This document shows positions 4,182 through 34,754 of a stretch of 48,605 nt of DNA, piece by piece; the stretch's first letter is position 1; every line of letters starts with the position of its first letter. The notes under the pieces were generated by a model. That model searched no databases and was not told the DNA's origin. It saw nothing but the letters and a program-made list of their open reading frames with translations. The stretch comes from a virus (Duplodnaviria > Heunggongvirae > Uroviricota > Caudoviricetes), in IMG/VR virus record IMGVR_UViG_3300037400_006466, positions 236,098-284,702 of that record; one strand, 5' to 3'. Both the position numbers and the translations under genes were made by a program.

Positions 4182-4367
4182 TCAGCTGCCTTGAGATGCG
4201 CTTACCCAAGCATAAGATACACTTCCACTATTCACAGTTATCTGCAAAGTGTATGTTCCGTCAGTTGTAGGGGGTTCAGGAACTCTTTCCTCAACAAAGT
4301 CCTTGATATATTCCTTGGTCTTTTTTGAGTAAAGGGCCAATCCCTTCTTATCCAAAAACTTTTCCAT
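4182..4367 (-). CDS. Small fibre-associated protein, KYLDxxGL family
   Basis: 61 aa with GGAG RBS; MEKFLDKKGLALYSKKTKEYI plus C-terminal PPTTDGTYTLQITVNSGSVSYAW, a motif common at phage fibre ends. Confidence 0.6.
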   Translation of the reverse strand: MEKFLDKKGLALYSKKTKEYIKDFVEERVPEPPTTDGTYTLQITVNSGSVSYAWVSASQGS

Positions 4368-4572
4368 ATATATTCTCCTTCTAAATTTTTCTATAAAAAA
4401 GCTCTATATTAATTAGTGAAAAACGATTATACCACTCATTCTGGGAGTATTATGTGTCTATGAAGGTGATATCTATAAGAGAAATATTGACAAAAGAGCC
4501 ATGAGGGAATCGGACTTTATTTATCTTAAATGAAATTTCTTTATAGTCTTTTCAAAATATTTCTATAAAAAG

Positions 4573-4645
4573 AGCACCAGACGGGTAACGCTCCCGCTAA
4601 TAGAGGTTTTGCAGACCCCCCTGTTTTCTTATTCAGCACTGGTGC
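4573..4645 (-). tRNA. tRNA-Cys(GCA)
   Basis: Acceptor GCACCAG/CTGGTGC, U73, anticodon loop CT-GCA-AA; non-canonical T-loop AGCGTTA. Confidence 0.85.
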
Positions 4646-4647
4646 TA

Positions 4648-4735
4648 TGAGGACTAGAGGAATCGAACCACTCGTCAGCCACCTACCTTATTTCATAGAC
4701 GGATGATTTACAGTCACCTGGCAGGAATAGCCCCC
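4648..4735 (-). tRNA. Atypical D-armless tRNA-Tyr(GTA)-like gene
   Basis: Acceptor GGGGGCT/AGTCCTC, A73, anticodon arm GGTGA-CTGTAAA-TCATC, T-loop TTCGATT; only 10 nt where the D-arm belongs; 29-nt variable region. Confidence 0.7.
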
Positions 4736-4752
4736 CCCCTATAATTCAAATA

Positions 4753-4834
4753 TGGGCAGTATAGGAATCGAACCTACCGTGGTATAACCAACGCGTTTAC
4801 AGCGCGCTCCCTTGCCAACTGGGGTCACCTGCCC
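4753..4834 (-). tRNA. tRNA-Tyr(GTA)
   Basis: Full cloverleaf with class II variable arm; loop CT-GTA-AA; T-loop TTCGATT. Confidence 0.9.
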
Positions 4835-4948
4835 TAAAAAAGTAGACGCTCGCATTAACCTATTTTATATCTTCCCCGGCGTCTAGGAAGAAACCCTGTA
4901 AAGTTGGGTGTGCCACTTGTACTTGGTGGTGACGCTATTATATACTTT

Positions 4949-5020
4949 TAGCTAGGACTGGAGTCGAACCAGTGAATACAGATTTTCAGTCTGCTATGTT
5001 ACCAGCTACATTACCTAGCC
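4949..5020 (-). tRNA. tRNA-Phe(GAA)
   Basis: Acceptor GGCTAGG/CCTAGCT, loop CT-GAA-AA, T-loop TTCGACT. Confidence 0.92.
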
Positions 5021-5028
5021 ATATATTT

Positions 5029-5120
5029 CGGATGGTGCAAGATTCGAACTCGCGTGTCAGGTCTTAGCTGACAGACTGGTTTTCAAGACCAGCGGGTTAT
5101 GACCACTTCCCTAACCATCC
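5029..5120 (-). tRNA. tRNA-Ser(TGA)
   Basis: Acceptor GGATGGT/ACCATCC, G73, loop CT-TGA-AA, long variable arm. Confidence 0.92.
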
Positions 5121-5125
5121 AAGTT

Positions 5126-5209
5126 CAGAGAGTGAGGGTGCCGACCTCTCTTGTCCTTTTGGGACTCTGACCTTCCAAATCAGCGTGTTTGCCGTTCCAC
5201 CAACTCTCT
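5126..5209 (-). tRNA. tRNA-Ser(GGA)
   Basis: Acceptor AGAGAGT/ACTCTCT, G73, loop TT-GGA-AG, variable arm; non-canonical T-loop TCGGCAC. Confidence 0.8.
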
Positions 5210-5217
5210 ATTTTTTA

Positions 5218-5288
5218 CAGGAGATACCCGAGTCGAACAGGTCTCTGGAAGTTTGGAGCTTCCCAGTCTACCGATAACCTAATCTCCC
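5218..5288 (-). tRNA. tRNA-Trp(CCA)
   Basis: Acceptor GGGAGAT/ATCTCCT, G73, anticodon arm GGAAG-CTCCAAA-CTTCC. Confidence 0.92.
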
Positions 5289-5296
5289 ATTTGTAT

Positions 5297-5326
5297 AAAA
5301 AAGAACCCTTCCATTTCTGGAAGGGT
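5297..5326 (-). terminator. Attenuator terminator upstream of the UNN-tRNA operon
   Basis: ACCCTTCCA-GAAA-TGGAAGGGT followed by TCTTTTTT, ending 9 nt before tRNA-Trp; its 5' arm can instead pair with leader segment 5382-5392. Confidence 0.85.
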
Positions 5327-5352
5327 CAGAATCAAAAGGAGGAGTGTTTCTC

Positions 5353-5439
5353 TTAACTTCGATACACACCTACAAGAACTTCCCTTCCAGAAGAGCTGAA
5401 ACATGAGTAAAAGCAATAGGACCAAAAGTTCTTTTTCAT
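5353..5439 (-). CDS. Leader peptide (28 aa) MKKNFWSYCFYSCFSSSGREVLVGVYRS
   Basis: GGAG RBS 9 nt before ATG; codons 5-14 are TTT TGG TCC TAT TGC TTT TAC TCA TGT TTC; contains TTCTGGAAGGG (5382-5392), a perfect 11-nt complement of terminator arm 5315-5325. Confidence 0.85.
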   Translation of the reverse strand: MKKNFWSYCFYSCFSSSGREVLVGVYRS

Positions 5440-5490
5440 TTGTGTTTTCTCCATTAAGATTACATAATTAGTATAAGCTTCACAATACCA

Positions 5491-5519
5491 ATATTACAAA
5501 ATATTTTTGTTTTTGTCAA
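5491..5519 (-). promoter_or_regulatory. Sigma70-type promoter for leader/tRNA operon
   Basis: TTGACA-17 nt-TAATAT on the minus strand, downstream of a terminator at ~5529-5561. Confidence 0.75.
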
Positions 5520-5581
5520 TACTTATGCAAAAAAAAAAATCCACAGAAAAATCTGTGGATTATAAGGAATCTATGTCAATT

Positions 5582-6367
5582 TTATATGTCACCGAAGCAA
5601 CACATATTTTCCATCAGGGTCTTGACTCCCTGAATGACATTATCCTGCTCTTCCTTTGTCGGAAGTGGAGAAAGCTTGTACCAAGCGAGGATGGTAGGCA
5701 TCACTCTTCCGCAATTATCACCCTGGACATTAAGCTGGTAGCAACCTGGGAAGTCTTTTTTATCCACATTTTTGAGGAACTGAACTTCCTTGGCCACATC
5801 TTTTCTGGAATGACCATTGTTCAGCAGACACTTGACGTGGGCATTGATTACCTGATTGAACTCTGTATCATATCCGTTTACGATTCTCTGGTAATCATCA
5901 TCGTCCTCATCCACTCCCCAGAATCCGCCTAACATAAACTCAACACCGCCGTCCTTCTTGACTCTTGAAATGAACTCATCAAGGGAGACTCCGCCTGCCT
6001 CTGTTCCACCACCGTTATCTTCCAGGTGATAGATGTAGATTCCTATACCCTCTACATTCGGGTTATCACCTGCGCCCTCTGGTCCATAGAATGAAGCGCT
6101 GTCAAAGTATCCTGTTGCAGGAAGGTAAGGATCCTCTCCATCACAGGCATCATCGAATCCCTCTGAATAATAGCTGAATCCCTCGATTACTTCTCTCAGT
6201 CTGCTAAAGAAGTTCTGCCATTCAATGGCATATTTGCCGTTTCTCTTTTTGAGTTCATCTGCATACTTCTCAGCAGCAGGAGTGGCCTCTTCCTTGTCCC
6301 TCTGTGCCTGGAAAGCAGCAACCTCATCCCTATCCTCAAGTGGAGTTGATTCCTTGTATTTCTTCAT
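5582..6367 (-). CDS. Acidic hypothetical protein (possible internal head protein)
   Basis: 261 aa, D/E/G-rich, starts MKKYKES; no recognisable catalytic motif. Confidence 0.6.
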   Translation of the reverse strand: MKKYKESTPLEDRDEVAAFQAQRDKEEATPAAEKYADELKKRNGKYAIEWQNFFSRLREVIEGFSYYSEGFDDACDGEDPYLPATGYFDSASFYGPEGAGDNPNVEGIGIYIYHLEDNGGGTEAGGVSLDEFISRVKKDGGVEFMLGGFWGVDEDDDDYQRIVNGYDTEFNQVINAHVKCLLNNGHSRKDVAKEVQFLKNVDKKDFPGCYQLNVQGDNCGRVMPTILAWYKLSPLPTKEEQDNVIQGVKTLMENMCCFGDI

Positions 6368-16774: not shown

Positions 16775-18394
16775 TCAATATCCTACTATTTGGGTCTTGA
16801 AATAAGACCAATTTTGGCTGGATTGGTAAAAAGAAACTCTACTGACAGGAACACATATAGATCCTGTATTTGATGTGATTCCTGTGCCTTCAAAAGCCTT
16901 GGATGAACGTAAGCTACAAGTATCAGTGCCTATGTATATTATACTAAGATTGCTACAGCTTTTAAAGGCATTACTCCCTATAGATGTACAACAAGGTAGT
17001 GATATACTAGTAAGTGCTTGACAATCATAGAAAGTCGAATTAGAAACAATTTGACAAACAGGCAAGGACACACTAGAGAGAGCATAACAATCTTTGAAAG
17101 CTTGCTGGTAAAGTGAAGTACAAGCAGGAAGATTTACTTCTGGCAAAGATGTACACCCATTAAAAGCACCCTGACCTACTGAAGTGCATAAAGGAAGGGA
17201 TACTGCTGTTAAAGATGTACACCCAGAAAAAGCACCCGTACCTACTGAAGTACATGAAGGAAGGGACACTTCTGTTAAAGATGTACACCCATTAAAAGCA
17301 TATCCATCAATACAAGAACAAACTGGTAAAGAAACATCTAAAAGACTACTACATTTATAAAATGTGTTATATCCAATATAAGTACAGACTGGGAATGAAA
17401 CTCTTGTAAGAGAAGAACATTGATAAAAAGCTGAACCGTAAATTCCTTCACAAGATGGCAATGATACTTCAACAAGATGAGAACAATCACTAAAAGCATA
17501 GTACCCAATTGAAGTGCACAATGGAAGTGAAATCTGTGATAAAGATGTACACCTAGAAAAAGCACACATACCTACTGAAGTACATGAAGGAAGGGACACT
17601 TCTGTTAAAGATGTACAACAAGCAAAAGCACTATTTCCAACCTGAGATGCATTAGGGAAGTATGCTTCTGACAAAGATGAACAGTAATAAAATGCTGCTT
17701 CATCTAAAAATGTACAGTTTGGAAAACTAGCTGTTTTCAAAGAATAGCAACTAGAGAAGGCTCCCTTTTCTATTCTGCTACAAGAAGGAAATGAAATTTC
17801 GGATAAAGAAGAACACCAGAAAAAAGCAGAACTTTTTATTTCAGTACAAGCAGGAAAATTAACTGTTCTAAGTTTAGAGCATCTACAAAAAGCTGAACTT
17901 CCTATTGTAGAACAAAGAGGAAAAGAAGCCTCACTCAAAGAAGAACAGGAAAAAAAAGCACTACTATTTATAATATTACAAACAGGAAAAAAAGCAGAAC
18001 TAAGAGAATAACAAAACATAAAAGCCTCAGGTCCTATTGAAGTGCATTCTGGAAACGAAACTTCAATAAGATTTCCACAATTTCCAAAAGCACTTAATGG
18101 CACTTCTTTGATCTTGGTCAATTCTGCTCTTTTTAAAGTAGAACACCCCATAAATAGTCCTTCTTTTAAAGAAGAAATTGAACTCTTATCTAAATAGAAT
18201 GATGACTCTTTATATCTATTAAAAAAAGCTGAAGCAAGCGCATCGGTTCCTTGTGGAGCTTCTAACTGTGATATGTATGAGGAAAAACTAGATAAAGGAA
18301 GATTTTCAGGAGCGTCAATCCCTTCATGTGACAATATATTTTTAATTGCTACTTTTGCGTTTTTTAATCTTAGAAATTCACTAGTAATTGACAT
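16775..18394 (-). CDS. BspA-type leucine-rich repeat (LRR_5) protein
   Basis: About 20 tandem 22-aa repeats of type SLTEVSLPxCTSIGxxAFxxCx; N-terminal RLKNAKVAIKNIL..EGI.AP motif. Confidence 0.9.
   Translation of the reverse strand: MSITSEFLRLKNAKVAIKNILSHEGIDAPENLPLSSFSSYISQLEAPQGTDALASAFFNRYKESSFYLDKSSISSLKEGLFMGCSTLKRAELTKIKEVPLSAFGNCGNLIEVSFPECTSIGPEAFMFCYSLSSAFFPVCNIINSSAFFSCSSLSEASFPLCSTIGSSAFCRCSKLRTVNFPACTEIKSSAFFWCSSLSEISFPSCSRIEKGAFSSCYSLKTASFPNCTFLDEAAFYYCSSLSEAYFPNASQVGNSAFACCTSLTEVSLPSCTSVGMCAFSRCTSLSQISLPLCTSIGYYAFSDCSHLVEVSLPSCEGIYGSAFYQCSSLTRVSFPVCTYIGYNTFYKCSSLLDVSLPVCSCIDGYAFNGCTSLTEVSLPSCTSVGTGAFSGCTSLTAVSLPLCTSVGQGAFNGCTSLPEVNLPACTSLYQQAFKDCYALSSVSLPVCQIVSNSTFYDCQALTSISLPCCTSIGSNAFKSCSNLSIIYIGTDTCSLRSSKAFEGTGITSNTGSICVPVSRVSFYQSSQNWSYFKTQIVGY
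17239..17617. repeat. Exact 49-bp direct repeat inside the LRR gene (17239-17287 and 17569-17617)
   Basis: tacctactgaagtacatgaaggaagggacacttctgttaaagatgtaca occurs twice, 330 bp (five 66-bp units) apart. Confidence 0.9.
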
Positions 18395-18413
18395 TTAAAA
18401 ATATCTCCTATTA

Positions 18414-20087
18414 TTAATATCCTATAATCTGATTCTTAAAGTAAGACCAGTAAGTTGATGCTTTATAAGATTCTACATATTCTGATGGAACAAAAATGGA
18501 TCCTTTGCTACTAGTAATCTGTGTACTGTAAAAGACATATGAAGTATTTATAGAGCAATTTGACATTCCAACATATATTGTACTTAAAGAATCACAGTTT
18601 CTAAAAGCATAGATTCCTATATATGTACAATTTGGAAGTGATATACTTGTTAATTTAGAACAATATGCAAAAGCAGAGGATCCAATTGCGTTACACTTTG
18701 GAAGGTATATGTCAGTAAGAGAATAACAACTTGCAAAAGCACTCATTTCTATTGAAACGCATTCTGGCAAAGAGACACTGGTAAGAGAACTACAAGAATA
18801 AAATGTGTAAGTTTTTATTGTTGTACACATTGAAAAAGATATGTTTGCAAGACTGCTACAGTTATAAAAAGCACCTAGTCCTATAGTTGTACAAGTAGGA
18901 AGGATGGCTTCACTAAGTCTATAACAATCATTAAAAGCATAGTTTGCTATATTTGTACATTTTGGAAATGATATTGTTGTTAAGTAAGAGCAATCATAGA
19001 AAGCGTTTGCACCTATTGTTTCACACTCTGGGAATATTGCAGTATTAAGTGATATGCATCTTGTAAAAGTACCTGTCTCAATTGTTGTACACTTTGGAAA
19101 TTCTGCAGCCTTAAGAGCACTGCATCCATAGAATGCTGAATATCCTATATATGTACACTCAGGAAACGACACTTCAGAAAGATTAAAGCAGCCCTGAAAG
19201 GCTGAACTACTTATAGATATACAATTAGAAAATGATGCTACAGTAAGAGACCCGCATCCTGAAAATGCATATGCTCCTATGTGAGTACAATTAGGAAAAA
19301 ATGCAGAAGAAATACCAGTTCTTCCAAAAGCTCTTCCAATAGAAGTACAAAGTGGAGCTGAAACCTCTGTGAGACTGCTGCATTGATAAAAAAGATTGTC
19401 TGTAATGGTCAACACTTTTGGAAGATATACTCTAGTGAGTGCACGGCAATTTGAAAAAACTCCTTGACCAAATTCAGAACAATTTGGAAATGACACTTCA
19501 GTAAGAGAACTACAGTAATTGAAGGCTAATTCATTAACAAGAGAACAAGAAGGAAAATAAACTGAAGATAAGTTAAAACAATATGCAAATGCTCCAAGTC
19601 CTATTGATGAGCATTTAGGAAAATAAGCTTCAGACAAAGTCCTACACTGCCAAAAAGCACTTGTATCTATTTGTGTACACTCTGGAAAAGATGCATTATT
19701 AAGAGAATAGCAGTATGCAAAAGCATTACTACCAATAGTATTACATGATGGCATGCTTATAGAACTGAGACTACTGCACTGATAAAAAGCAAAGTTTTCA
19801 ATGCTTGTACATGCTGGAAATGAAACCTCTTTCAGTGAACTGAATCCTCTGAAACATTGTTCTGGCAAGGTTTCCATAGTTGAATTTTCATAAGATTCTA
19901 TGGTTCCTTCAATCAGTTCCTTTACATAGAAAGGATCATGAGTCCAGGAAGATAAAATGTTTGATATATCATCAAGATGAGTATCATCTGAAACTGTAAG
20001 TCCTTTACTTAACAGAACTTCTTTTAAGTCATTTTCTATATTCAACAGTCTTGTCTGCTGTGAAATAAGAGAACTATTCAAAGACAT
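18414..20087 (-). CDS. BspA-type leucine-rich repeat (LRR_5) protein
   Basis: About 20 repeats of SLxEVSFPxCTxIGxxAFxxCx; N-terminal RLLNIENDLKEVLLSKGLTV; C-terminal IFVPSEYVESYKASTYWSYFKNQIIGY cap. Confidence 0.9.
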   Translation of the reverse strand: MSLNSSLISQQTRLLNIENDLKEVLLSKGLTVSDDTHLDDISNILSSWTHDPFYVKELIEGTIESYENSTMETLPEQCFRGFSSLKEVSFPACTSIENFAFYQCSSLSSISMPSCNTIGSNAFAYCYSLNNASFPECTQIDTSAFWQCRTLSEAYFPKCSSIGLGAFAYCFNLSSVYFPSCSLVNELAFNYCSSLTEVSFPNCSEFGQGVFSNCRALTRVYLPKVLTITDNLFYQCSSLTEVSAPLCTSIGRAFGRTGISSAFFPNCTHIGAYAFSGCGSLTVASFSNCISISSSAFQGCFNLSEVSFPECTYIGYSAFYGCSALKAAEFPKCTTIETGTFTRCISLNTAIFPECETIGANAFYDCSYLTTISFPKCTNIANYAFNDCYRLSEAILPTCTTIGLGAFYNCSSLANISFSMCTTIKTYTFYSCSSLTSVSLPECVSIEMSAFASCYSLTDIYLPKCNAIGSSAFAYCSKLTSISLPNCTYIGIYAFRNCDSLSTIYVGMSNCSINTSYVFYSTQITSSKGSIFVPSEYVESYKASTYWSYFKNQIIGY

Positions 20088-27700: not shown

Positions 27701-27706
27701 ATATAG

Positions 27707-27786
27707 TGACCGCAGAGGGATTCGAACCCCCATTTTCAGCTCCTATTACTCTTATCTGATTAGAAGTCAGATGAGGCTATGCGGCC
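27707..27786 (-). tRNA. Atypical D-armless tRNA-Arg(TCT)-like gene
   Basis: Acceptor GGCCGCA/TGCGGTC; 8-nt connector TAGCCTCA instead of a D-arm; arm TCTGA-CTTCTAA-TCAGA; ~23-nt variable region; T-loop TTCGAAT. Confidence 0.7.
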
Positions 27787-27788
27787 AT

Positions 27789-28460
27789 TTACTCCCACCA
27801 GTCTTTGCTGATGTTCTCCTTTCTTCTCTTTTCCTGGGATTCAGTGAGAAGATGGGTGCAGTTATATCTCCATATGCTCCCAAGGGTCTTGTCCTTGAAA
27901 TTGGCGGAAGTCTCCAGATATCTCCTATATTCAGGATTCCATCCGTATGATTCCTCAAGTCTGTTGCTGATATCCTCTATGGCCTCAGCGAAGATACTGA
28001 ACGGAATATTGAACTTGTATCCCCTGAACTCTGTATAGAAATCGTCAGCATCAGAATCCTCTATAATCTTCACTTCCTTGTCAAGAAGCTGGAACTCCTT
28101 GTTGTCATCCTGCTGATAATAGCAGAACAGAGTCCTATCATCCTTGACTATTCCGAAAATGAATGACTCCTGGTCATACTTCTCAGCACCGAAGATATAC
28201 TTGGCATAATCAAGATTGATATTGGAAATAAGAACAGGATGCTCCTCATTACCATACTTACCTTTCAGCATCCTCCAAGATAATCTCTGCTCTTTAAGGT
28301 CAGCCTTGAAGTCCTTGTATCTTTCAGCATTTTCCCTATCTGAGTACTTCACACCCATAGGATTCTCAGGAGTACCTATGGCAAATGTGAAGATGTTTCT
28401 CTTCACACCATAAAGGGTCTTCTTCAGCTTTGTAAGTCTGGATGTCTCTGATATTCTCAT
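27789..28460 (-). CDS. Hypothetical phage protein
   Basis: Start MRISET with GGAG RBS; FAIGTPENPMG...GKYGNEE...YDQESFIF pattern; function not recognised. Confidence 0.6.
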   Translation of the reverse strand: MRISETSRLTKLKKTLYGVKRNIFTFAIGTPENPMGVKYSDRENAERYKDFKADLKEQRLSWRMLKGKYGNEEHPVLISNINLDYAKYIFGAEKYDQESFIFGIVKDDRTLFCYYQQDDNKEFQLLDKEVKIIEDSDADDFYTEFRGYKFNIPFSIFAEAIEDISNRLEESYGWNPEYRRYLETSANFKDKTLGSIWRYNCTHLLTESQEKRRKENISKDWWE

Positions 28461-31642: not shown

Positions 31643-31648
31643 ATTTTA

Positions 31649-31751
31649 CAGGCCCTAGAGGAATCGAACCTCTGTCTACCACTGCTGCGTTGTTCTGTAC
31701 ATAAAACTGAAATTGCTCCAGTTTCCGGATCCGCCACTGAACTAAGGACCT
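31649..31751 (-). tRNA. tRNA-like gene with anticodon arm replaced by a ~50-nt insert
   Basis: Acceptor AGGTCCT/AGGGCCT, D-arm GTTC-AGTGGC-GGAT, perfect T-arm AGAGG-TTCGATT-CCTCT; no 7-nt anticodon loop with U33. Confidence 0.6.
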
Positions 31752-31758
31752 ATTTGAG

Positions 31759-33249: not shown

Positions 33250-33253
33250 ATTA

Positions 33254-33326
33254 TAGGTATGATTGGACTTGCACCAATAACATCTGCCTTATGAGAGCAG
33301 CGTTCAGCTATTTGAACTTCATACCT
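33254..33326 (-). tRNA. tRNA with CAT anticodon (elongator Met or Ile2)
   Basis: Acceptor AGGTATG/CATACCT; arm CTGCT-CTCATAA-GGCAG; T-loop TGCAAGT. Confidence 0.85.
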
Positions 33327-33331
33327 GTTTT

Positions 33332-33404
33332 TGAGCCGTGTAGGTACTGCCCCTACTTAAGCTGGTTTAAGAGACCAGTGCATCAACTTTTCTGCCAACA
33401 GCCC
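33332..33404 (-). tRNA. tRNA-Lys(CTT)
   Basis: Acceptor GGGCTGT/ACGGCTC; arm CTGGT-CTCTTAA-ACCAG; T-loop GGCAGTA. Confidence 0.85.
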
Positions 33405-34212: not shown

Positions 34213-34371
34213 CTATAAAAAATAGGGTCTTCTAAAAAACCTATATGCTATTCACTTTTCCACGGATAAGTGTCAACATAGGCTCAAAAACTGGACACCT
34301 TATTACCCAAGGGAGAAGTCAGCTACTTTTCTTCCTTCCTATTTTTCAAGGTAAAGGGTAGTTTATTTTTA

Positions 34372-34539: not shown

Positions 34540-34544
34540 GAGTT

Positions 34545-34615
34545 CTGCCCCACATGGAATTGCACCACGATGTCAAGTACCAGAAGCTTGTGTCCTACTA
34601 TTGAACGATAGGGCA
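34545..34615 (-). tRNA. tRNA-Gln(CTG)
   Basis: Acceptor TGCCCTA/TGGGGCA, G73; loop TT-CTG-GT; T-loop TGCAATT. Confidence 0.85.
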
Positions 34616-34754
34616 ATTTAAAGAAAAGTAAGTTTAGAAAAAAGTGTTACGGCGCCACCTAGTCGAAAACAGATACAAGTATAGGTATCTGTCTGTTGAT
34701 GGCTGAAAAGACTCAACTTACATAACTTGTTCCTCACAAGTTGTCTTTTACATT

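Follow-up and report, generated by a model that had tools for sequence, protein, structure and literature searches.

A leader-peptide attenuator as the probable control of a phage tRNA cassette

On the minus strand of the window, the 48,605-nucleotide stretch of phage DNA analysed here, six tRNA genes lie behind a 28-codon leader open reading frame (ORF) and an intrinsic terminator, and the leader carries ten consecutive codons that are read by these same tRNAs. This arrangement is probably a ribosome-mediated (leader-peptide) transcription attenuator, which would gate the six tRNA genes by sensing how fast their own codons are decoded, the tRNAs probably being made only when ribosomes read these codons slowly. 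An initial annotation of the DNA had proposed an attenuator of the trp/phe type, and at the level of sequence the core of the proposal is supported by the parts, their linkage to the tRNA set, their conservation and the modelled geometry of the ribosome position. The window forms the final 48.6 kb of an IMG/VR virus record that is 284.7 kb long, has 40% G+C and is estimated to be 96% complete. All coordinates of the leader and the cassette are read on the minus strand, and the elements of the leader are the following.

5491..5519, minus strand: sigma70-type promoter, TTGACA-17-TAATAT
5464..5481, minus strand: conserved block with ACTAATTA, the 5' limit of conservation in all relatives
5449..5452, minus strand: Shine-Dalgarno (SD) sequence GGAG, invariant in five loci, 8-9 nt ahead of the ATG
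5353..5439, minus strand: leader ORF, 28 codons and stop (stop codon 5355-5353), with frame and stop conserved
5425..5433, minus strand: segment 1, 5' strand of the anti-antiterminator helix, pairing with 5382-5374
5398..5427, minus strand: regulatory run of ten cognate codons (Phe/Trp/Ser(UCN)/Tyr/Cys), codons 5-14
5382..5392, minus strand: segment 2, antiterminator arm, repeating the terminator 3' arm, with an invariant GGAAGGG core
5374..5382, minus strand: 3' partner of segment 1 in the helix, directly adjoining segment 2
5340..5371, minus strand: interior hairpin, stop codon in the loop; retained in relatives, where pairs are shifted or wobble
5304..5327, minus strand: terminator hairpin (segments 3 and 4), 10-bp GC-rich stem and GAAA loop
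5297..5303, minus strand: terminator T-run (CTTTTTT to 5297), 8 nt before tRNA-Trp

The leader ORF and its regulatory codons

The promoter previously read at 5519-5491 is present in the window. Downstream of it, the GGAG at 5452-5449 sits 9 nt ahead of the ATG at 5439, which opens the 28-codon ORF predicted earlier, and five loci share the same SD, start, frame and stop. A further ATG at 5454 falls out of frame in the related contigs L029 and L030 through a 1-2-nt indel, and 5439 is thus taken as the true start; the correspondingly extended ORF of 33 residues is absent from the recorded gene calls. Codons 5-14 read TTT TGG TCC TAT TGC TTT TAC TCA TGT TTC (Phe Trp Ser Tyr Cys Phe Tyr Ser Cys Phe), with both codons of Phe, Tyr and Cys in use, and are followed by AGC TCT TCT. 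The ten U-starting codons (UNN) noted in the initial annotation are therefore all there, and every one is read by the downstream tRNAs. When the whole genome was scanned in six frames for the eleven cognate codons, four runs of at least ten were found, three of which are monotonous TCN repeats, so that the run of the leader is the sole mixed one in 284.7 kb; no run of at least ten cognate codons occurred in 20 simulated genomes. The chance of a comparable run within a 130-nt leader, estimated from trinucleotide frequencies, is about 2e-5.

On the 5' side of the SD sequence, the ACTAATTA motif of the conserved block occupies 5465-5472 (minus strand). It recurs at 40 further sites in the genome, giving 41 in total against about 25 expected in 285 kb, and many copies stand 20-60 nt ahead of an SD sequence and start codon. 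The block may be a phage-specific promoter element.

The tRNA cassette

Behind the terminator, the following genes and remnant were identified.

5217..5289, minus strand: tRNA-Trp (CCA), ARAGORN
5125..5210, minus strand: tRNA-Ser (GGA), ARAGORN, in the window at the relaxed threshold only
5028..5121, minus strand: tRNA-Ser (TGA), ARAGORN
4948..5021, minus strand: tRNA-Phe (GAA), ARAGORN
4753..4834, minus strand: tRNA-Tyr (GTA), ARAGORN
4646..4752, minus strand: degenerate Tyr-like remnant with a GTA anticodon arm, no tRNA call by ARAGORN or Rfam
4572..4645, minus strand: tRNA-Cys (GCA), ARAGORN, the final gene of the cassette, followed by a T-run

Seven genes had been claimed for this cassette. 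The specificities Trp-CCA, Ser-GGA, Ser-TGA, Phe-GAA, Tyr-GTA and Cys-GCA stand, yet ARAGORN gives six genes, and the supposed second Tyr gene at 4752-4646 has to be withdrawn in this phage, since it keeps the GTA anticodon arm without being called by either program; a genuine second Tyr gene occupies the same position in the related contig L028. Copies of tRNA-Ser-GGA in relatives, 98-100% identical to that of the window, pass the default ARAGORN threshold. All six cassette tRNAs read U-starting codons and all carry A36-A37 in the ARAGORN drawings. ARAGORN finds 27 tRNA genes in the genome, 26 of them inside the window and every one of these on the minus strand; taking about 28 in the genome, eight of them for UNN codons, the clustering of six UNN tRNAs is improbable by simple combinatorics (28 in 376,740). 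No promoter-like site is found on the coding strand between the terminator (5297) and the end of the cassette (4572), and the cassette tRNAs would therefore be made by read-through only.

The 113-nt spacer between tRNA-Phe and tRNA-Tyr (4835-4947, minus strand) contains a long-looped hairpin of 7 bp and, behind it and close ahead of tRNA-Tyr, a T-run; a copy of the hairpin 3' arm is found near the spacer 5' end, and there is no ATG. The spacer is found again in L029, where the hairpin is imperfect, and might act in processing or as another switch that has no ORF.

Predicted alternative RNA structures of the leader

The intrinsic terminator proposed earlier consists of a 10-bp stem (5327-5304) with the T-run to 5297, and its hairpin alone is worth -16.5 kcal/mol. 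The 11 nt at 5392-5382 are, as had been suggested, an exact complement of 5325-5315, the part of the terminator which comprises the 5' arm and the first three loop bases. A complement of this length was reached in only 3 of 20,000 shuffles of the upstream 133-nt leader (p ~1.5e-4). Similarly, the helix of 1:2 type between 5433-5425 and 5382-5374 forms 9 bp, including one G-U pair. The leader as a whole folds at -48.9 kcal/mol, more stable than its shuffles (z = -2.4).

Folding of the nascent chain gives an ordered series of predicted structures. The first, in all variants, is a helix of 9-10 bp that joins codons 3-5 to the sequence next to segment 2 and in whose loop three bases of segment 2 are paired as well. 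The second is the interior hairpin with the stop codon in its loop and the third, formed once segment 3 is out, is the helix between segments 2 and 3 (three of four variants, with no ribosome present), while the terminator appears as the fourth in the full-length RNA. With 25 nt of additional 5' sequence the full leader adopts the antiterminator form; without them it adopts the terminator form or lies at most 0.3 to 4 kcal/mol from it. The fold of the alternative structures suggested in the initial annotation thus places terminator and antiterminator nearly at the same energy, with a gap of 0.3 to 4 kcal/mol between the full-length states, and in these models so small a gap is as expected of a switch. 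In isolation the 2:3 duplex amounts to -19.2 kcal/mol (-13.3 in the related contig L024), the terminator hairpin to -15 to -17 kcal/mol and the 1:2 duplex to -8 to -10 kcal/mol among the variants.

Between the leader stop codon and the terminator lies an invariant CUCCUCCUUUUGAU stretch (5331-5344, minus strand). It is similar to the 3' tail of 16S rRNA with its anti-Shine-Dalgarno sequence, and pairing with the GGAG of the leader would be possible.

Ribosome position and exposure of the antiterminator

The effect of a ribosome on these alternatives was modelled in four sequence variants by folding only the RNA 3' of the ribosome, with the A site moved codon by codon, a footprint extending to +12 nt and a transcript that ends before segment 4 emerges. 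For every A-site position from codon 1 to codon 13, the segment 3 core is predicted to pair with segment 2 through all of its seven bases in the four variants, including L024. Six core bases remain paired in the model with the A site on codon 14, three or four on codon 15 and none from codon 16 onward. By these folds, the cognate run (codons 5-14) would fill the window of stalling positions that free the antiterminator and would end where masking begins. An undelayed ribosome would cover segment 2 during the transcription of the approximately 65 nt between the 1:2 helix and the T-run.

Conservation of the leader and exchange of the tRNAs

The cassette is preceded in the window by a gene for a 261-aa protein.

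5582, minus strand: end of the 261-aa gene upstream of the cassette
5538..5561, minus strand: intrinsic terminator with T-run, closing the 261-aa gene

The terminator at 5538..5561 makes the cassette a separate transcription unit in this phage. A search with the 261-aa protein led to a homologue, 47% identical, on the 286.9-kb contig L024, where genes for Trp, Ser-GGA, Ser-TGA, Phe, Phe, Tyr and Cys follow about 1.1 kb downstream behind an almost identical leader. A second search was blind to the leader and scanned metagenome contigs with the anticodon arm of tRNA-Ser-GGA; each of the four rumen contigs matched (L028-L031) carries the leader directly ahead of tRNA-Trp. The tRNA order of the cassette is kept in these contigs as far as they hold it, L030 stopping after Trp, and L031 is the phage of the window with the Tyr gene deleted. 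Leader and tRNA set occur together in five contigs and in at least four genomic contexts, the upstream neighbour being, by lineage, the 261-aa gene with its terminator and the promoter, a 95-aa gene, an unrelated gene, or Glu tRNAs and another promoter. In relatives of the 261-aa protein at 43-65% identity (L020, L021, L023, L075, L077) and at 34% (L026, L027), protein genes take the place of the cassette. Its absence beside the 261-aa gene in these relatives, together with the differing contexts elsewhere, indicates that leader and tRNAs are mobile as one unit.

The leader is 84-98% identical between lineages. It had been suggested that relatives be searched for the leader before the same tRNAs and for covariation of its stems; the former is found and the latter is not. 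In contrast to the leader, tRNA-Trp shows only 65-73% identity in most comparisons of lineages, with 84% and 99% for the two closest pairs; the Ser-TGA, Phe and Cys tRNAs are 60-68% identical, and the 130 nt upstream fall to about 52%, the random level. Compared with L024, L028, L029 and L030 the cassette is thus a mosaic, in which leader, Ser-GGA (98-100%) and Tyr (100% in every relative holding one) are conserved and Trp, Ser-TGA, Phe and Cys are swapped. Phe or Tyr is duplicated in some lineages; anticodons and order are unchanged. The diverged tRNAs beside a conserved leader indicate that the genes were exchanged for versions of the same specificity while the leader stayed.

Within the ORF alignment, seven changes fall in codons 1-21; four of them are synonymous and five concern the third codon position. 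The regulatory run has a single amino-acid replacement, at codon 10 of L030, where Tyr takes the place of Phe and the codon remains one of the cognate set. Codon 14 changes from TTC to TTT, which is read by the same tRNA. All six changes in codons 22-28 alter the peptide. Indels are absent from the ORF and amount to 1-2 nt just ahead of the ATG and just after the stop. The SD sequence, the greater part of the run, segment 2 and the sequence 3' of it, CUCCUCCUUUUGAU, the CCCTTCC core of segment 3 and segment 4 are invariant. Judged from the sequences, this pattern is that of a translated regulatory leader and not of a conserved small protein. In the five-sequence alignment, 90-95% of the cells of the proposed helices are paired, against 45-63% when the partners are slid. 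With the leader nearly constant while the tRNAs are swapped, and with tRNA identity and order kept in differing genomic places, a dedicated regulatory module is hard to avoid.

Searches further afield gave no additional locus. Neither BLASTN of the region nor TBLASTN of the leader peptide gave a match among 50,697 phage records, and no related cassette came from IMG/VR scans in which neighbouring proteins, the anticodon arm of tRNA-Trp, two words of the leader and a tRNA-Tyr word served as queries; the matches in these scans (five in one, one in another) lack tRNAs and leader and were set aside as chance. The tRNA-Tyr word had no match among prokaryotic contigs. The invariant 18-mer of segment 2 was met in 42 prokaryotic contigs, many of them Lachnospiraceae, and was discarded as a lead since none is a leader: about half of the contigs, nearly all from Lachnospiraceae and related Clostridia, hold it in one conserved protein-coding gene and the rest are scattered matches outside any leader context, which agrees with the about 17 expected by chance. 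The 258-kb genome of the distant relative G001 encodes three tRNAs and lacks a UNN cluster.

Hints of expression

Two metatranscriptome contigs from different bovine studies (runs X20 and X21) contain the leader within 5344-5519, one over 133 nt at 100% identity and the other, which differs at four positions, over 169 nt. In a third RNA contig tRNA-Trp is linked to a variant terminator, and a third version of the terminator loop is seen on an RNA-run contig. As DNA carry-over is possible in RNA runs, these contigs give only a hint that the leader is expressed.

Proposed mechanism

From the parts described above we infer that the ORF is translated, that transcription and translation are coupled in the host, and in which direction and by what physiological trigger the switch operates. 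Transcription would begin at the host-type promoter and/or the conserved ACTAATTA block. With no ribosome on the leader, segment 1 (codons 3-5) would pair with the stretch 3' of segment 2, the terminator would form and RNA polymerase would halt 8 nt before tRNA-Trp. Similarly, a ribosome reading smoothly would cover segment 2 as segments 3 and 4 emerge, again leaving the terminator to form. A ribosome stalled in codons 5-13, awaiting a Phe, Trp, Ser(UCN), Tyr or Cys tRNA, would instead hold segment 1 inside it and leave segment 2 free to pair with the newly made 5' arm of the terminator, and the polymerase would continue into the tRNA genes. The tRNAs made in this way would, when charged, speed decoding and close the switch, amounting to negative autoregulation. 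Such a homeostat is the simplest logic for a leader whose regulatory codons are read by the very tRNAs under its control.

Starvation for an amino acid would open the switch as well but is unlikely to be what it serves, since a larger tRNA supply would bring no relief. A response to tRNA shortage or to damage of the tRNAs themselves is more likely to have been selected, as may arise from a mismatch with host codon usage, host shut-off or tRNA-targeting defences; hypomodification at ms2i6A37, anticodon nucleases and uncharged tRNA, the triggers proposed so far, are guesses. In E. coli, tRNAs of the A36-A37 class carry ms2i6A37, made by MiaA/MiaB, and its loss derepresses the trp and phe attenuators. 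The cassette could thus be conceived as an inducible rescue of the whole MiaA/MiaB-type UNN class, self-contained and mobile from phage to phage, that is switched on only when the class fails and whose leader would gauge class-wide loss, cleavage or hypomodification during infection or host defence. We offer this extension tentatively and regard it as doubtful.

Weighing of alternative explanations

The conserved SD sequence, start, frame and stop would also be expected if the ORF encoded a functional 28-residue aromatic-rich peptide (membrane, toxic or precursor), with the hairpin as its terminator and the match to the tRNAs incidental or a matter of codon supply. The N-terminal Lys-Lys followed by a hydrophobic aromatic stretch recalls small membrane peptides, and radical-SAM peptide-modifying genes lie nearby in the phage. 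However, the hydrophobic stretch is too short for a membrane span, no similar peptide is present in the 50,697 phage records, and all six changes in the C-terminal seven codons replace residues, whereas the nucleotides of the alternative helices are invariant. A peptide gene would moreover leave the duplicated terminator arm in the ORF without a role and, with no room for a promoter between terminator and tRNAs, would leave the tRNAs silent, which together make this explanation very improbable. A translation-dependent attenuator in which the ribosome is halted by the nascent peptide or by general stress (a drug or toxin sensor of the TnaC/Erm type), and not by cognate tRNA supply, would have an identical architecture, and any slowing in codons 5-13 gives read-through in the model. 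Aromatic-rich nascent chains can interact with the ribosome exit tunnel. Against arrest of this kind, the run consists of exactly the five amino acids of the downstream tRNAs, with both codons of Phe, Tyr and Cys, as expected under tRNA sensing, and it tolerates the Phe to Tyr replacement at codon 10; we consider arrest unlikely. That the hairpin is a constitutive leaky terminator or a processing hairpin behind an untranslated, T-periodic, ORF-like stretch would agree with the lack of covariation and of a conserved promoter. It is hardly credible for a run that is unique in its genome and absent from the simulated ones, in a leader that keeps frame, SD and stop and remains conserved beside diverged tRNAs and unrelated flanks.

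Several observations weigh against attenuation by the cognate codons. The five-sequence alignment contains no two-sided (compensatory) pair change, because the helices barely vary among these sequences, so that the structural evidence consists of conservation and energetics. The antiterminator of L024 is down to a core of 7 contiguous pairs and 3 more, against 11 bp in four loci; by eye, the top terminator pair is T-A there and A-T in the window, whereby the terminator is kept and the antiterminator loses 4 of its 11 pairs. The RNA-run variant has a likewise reduced antiterminator, judged from the 30 letters shown. Of the five contigs, only three (the window, L030 and L031) have the sigma70-type promoter, which is lacking in L024 and L029. 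Regarding the codons, a stall at the Ser codons 15-17 would mask segment 2, and the tRNA for AGC, one of these codons, is encoded in another part of the genome. Two of the RNA contigs end, without loose ends, at 5344 and 5351 and not at 5297, while a DNA contig continues past these ends; contigs cannot show transcript ends. The timing model fails if host ribosomes do not follow RNA polymerase closely. Finally, the cassette is absent from several relatives and is therefore dispensable, and a codon-matched leader stands at only one of about eleven tRNA clusters in the window.

Other tRNA clusters and setting of the window

The terminator at 5304..5327 is the only strong terminator directly ahead of a tRNA in the window, and screening of the window's other tRNA clusters for ATG-led ORFs and terminators gave nothing comparable. 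At 34241-34279 (minus strand) a 12-codon ORF (Met Leu Thr Leu Ile Arg Gly Lys Val Asn Ser Ile) precedes a cluster of Leu-TAG, Arg-CCT, Val-TAC and Ile-GAT, with a weak hairpin and T-run of -3.9 kcal/mol. Six of its 12 residues match amino acids of the cluster, not all of the codons being readable by those anticodons, and lacking an SD sequence it is a much weaker candidate for the same design. Near called tRNAs, further tRNA-like stretches at 27702-27790, 33251-33400, 34540-34620 and 31643-31757 (minus strand) are left uncalled by ARAGORN; they show GGTTCGAATCC-type T-arm motifs and acceptor-like ends and may be tRNAs with insertions or unusual arms.

The stretch of the window or close relatives of it are found in bovine, sheep and goat gut metagenomes, which points to a large rumen phage as the source. 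Elsewhere in the window, two neighbouring proteins of about 550 aa (16775-20087, minus strand) carry BspA-type leucine-rich repeats (Pfam LRR_5, E 6e-81 and 1e-102). Such repeats are typical of gut-associated bacteria and their phages.

Comparison with known systems

To our knowledge, little is known of how phage tRNA genes are regulated, and the usual view takes them for a constitutive addition to the tRNA pool of the host. If the codon-matched attenuator is real, the phage would gauge decoding capacity in real time and make tRNAs on demand under direct negative feedback, which bears on why phages carry tRNAs at all, be it codon-usage mismatch, host shut-off or escape from tRNA-targeting defences. 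The leader would also be a compact natural sensor of specific tRNA supply, usable as a reporter.

The leader displays the organization of the trpL, pheL, hisL and leuL leaders, with a short SD-led ORF containing the regulatory codons, mutually exclusive 1:2, 2:3 and 3:4 helices and a terminator before the genes, and like the enterobacterial thr and ilvGMEDA leaders it would sense several amino acids together. In contrast to these enterobacterial leaders, it is phage-borne, its targets are tRNAs instead of biosynthetic enzymes, so that the output would act directly on the decoding that is sensed, and it samples five amino acids with U-first codons one to three times each. Its stop codon lies 27 nt past segment 2 and not just before it. 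E. coli pheST, with its leader peptide pheM, similarly places a component of the translation apparatus under a leader-peptide attenuator through cognate codons, whereas the regulated gene there is a synthetase and one amino acid is sensed. A Phe-rich leader was considered for the E. coli tRNA-Phe genes pheU and pheV and was dropped from the comparison, as the K-12 sequence shows only a promoter directly ahead of each tRNA, with no leader ORF or terminator. T-box riboswitches also answer tRNA status through terminator and antiterminator alternatives. In contrast, the T-box binds uncharged tRNA directly and independently of translation, with a specifier loop and the conserved T-box sequence, and an Rfam scan of 4300-5800 with E up to 1 gave no T-box match and no convincing family except tRNA. 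A full-text literature search found no leader-peptide attenuator of tRNA genes, in agreement with the lack of precedent supposed in the initial annotation. The phage leader would represent a known mechanism, leader-peptide attenuation, with a new target class and a new feedback logic, and would extend the textbook form of attenuation to a new class of regulated genes.

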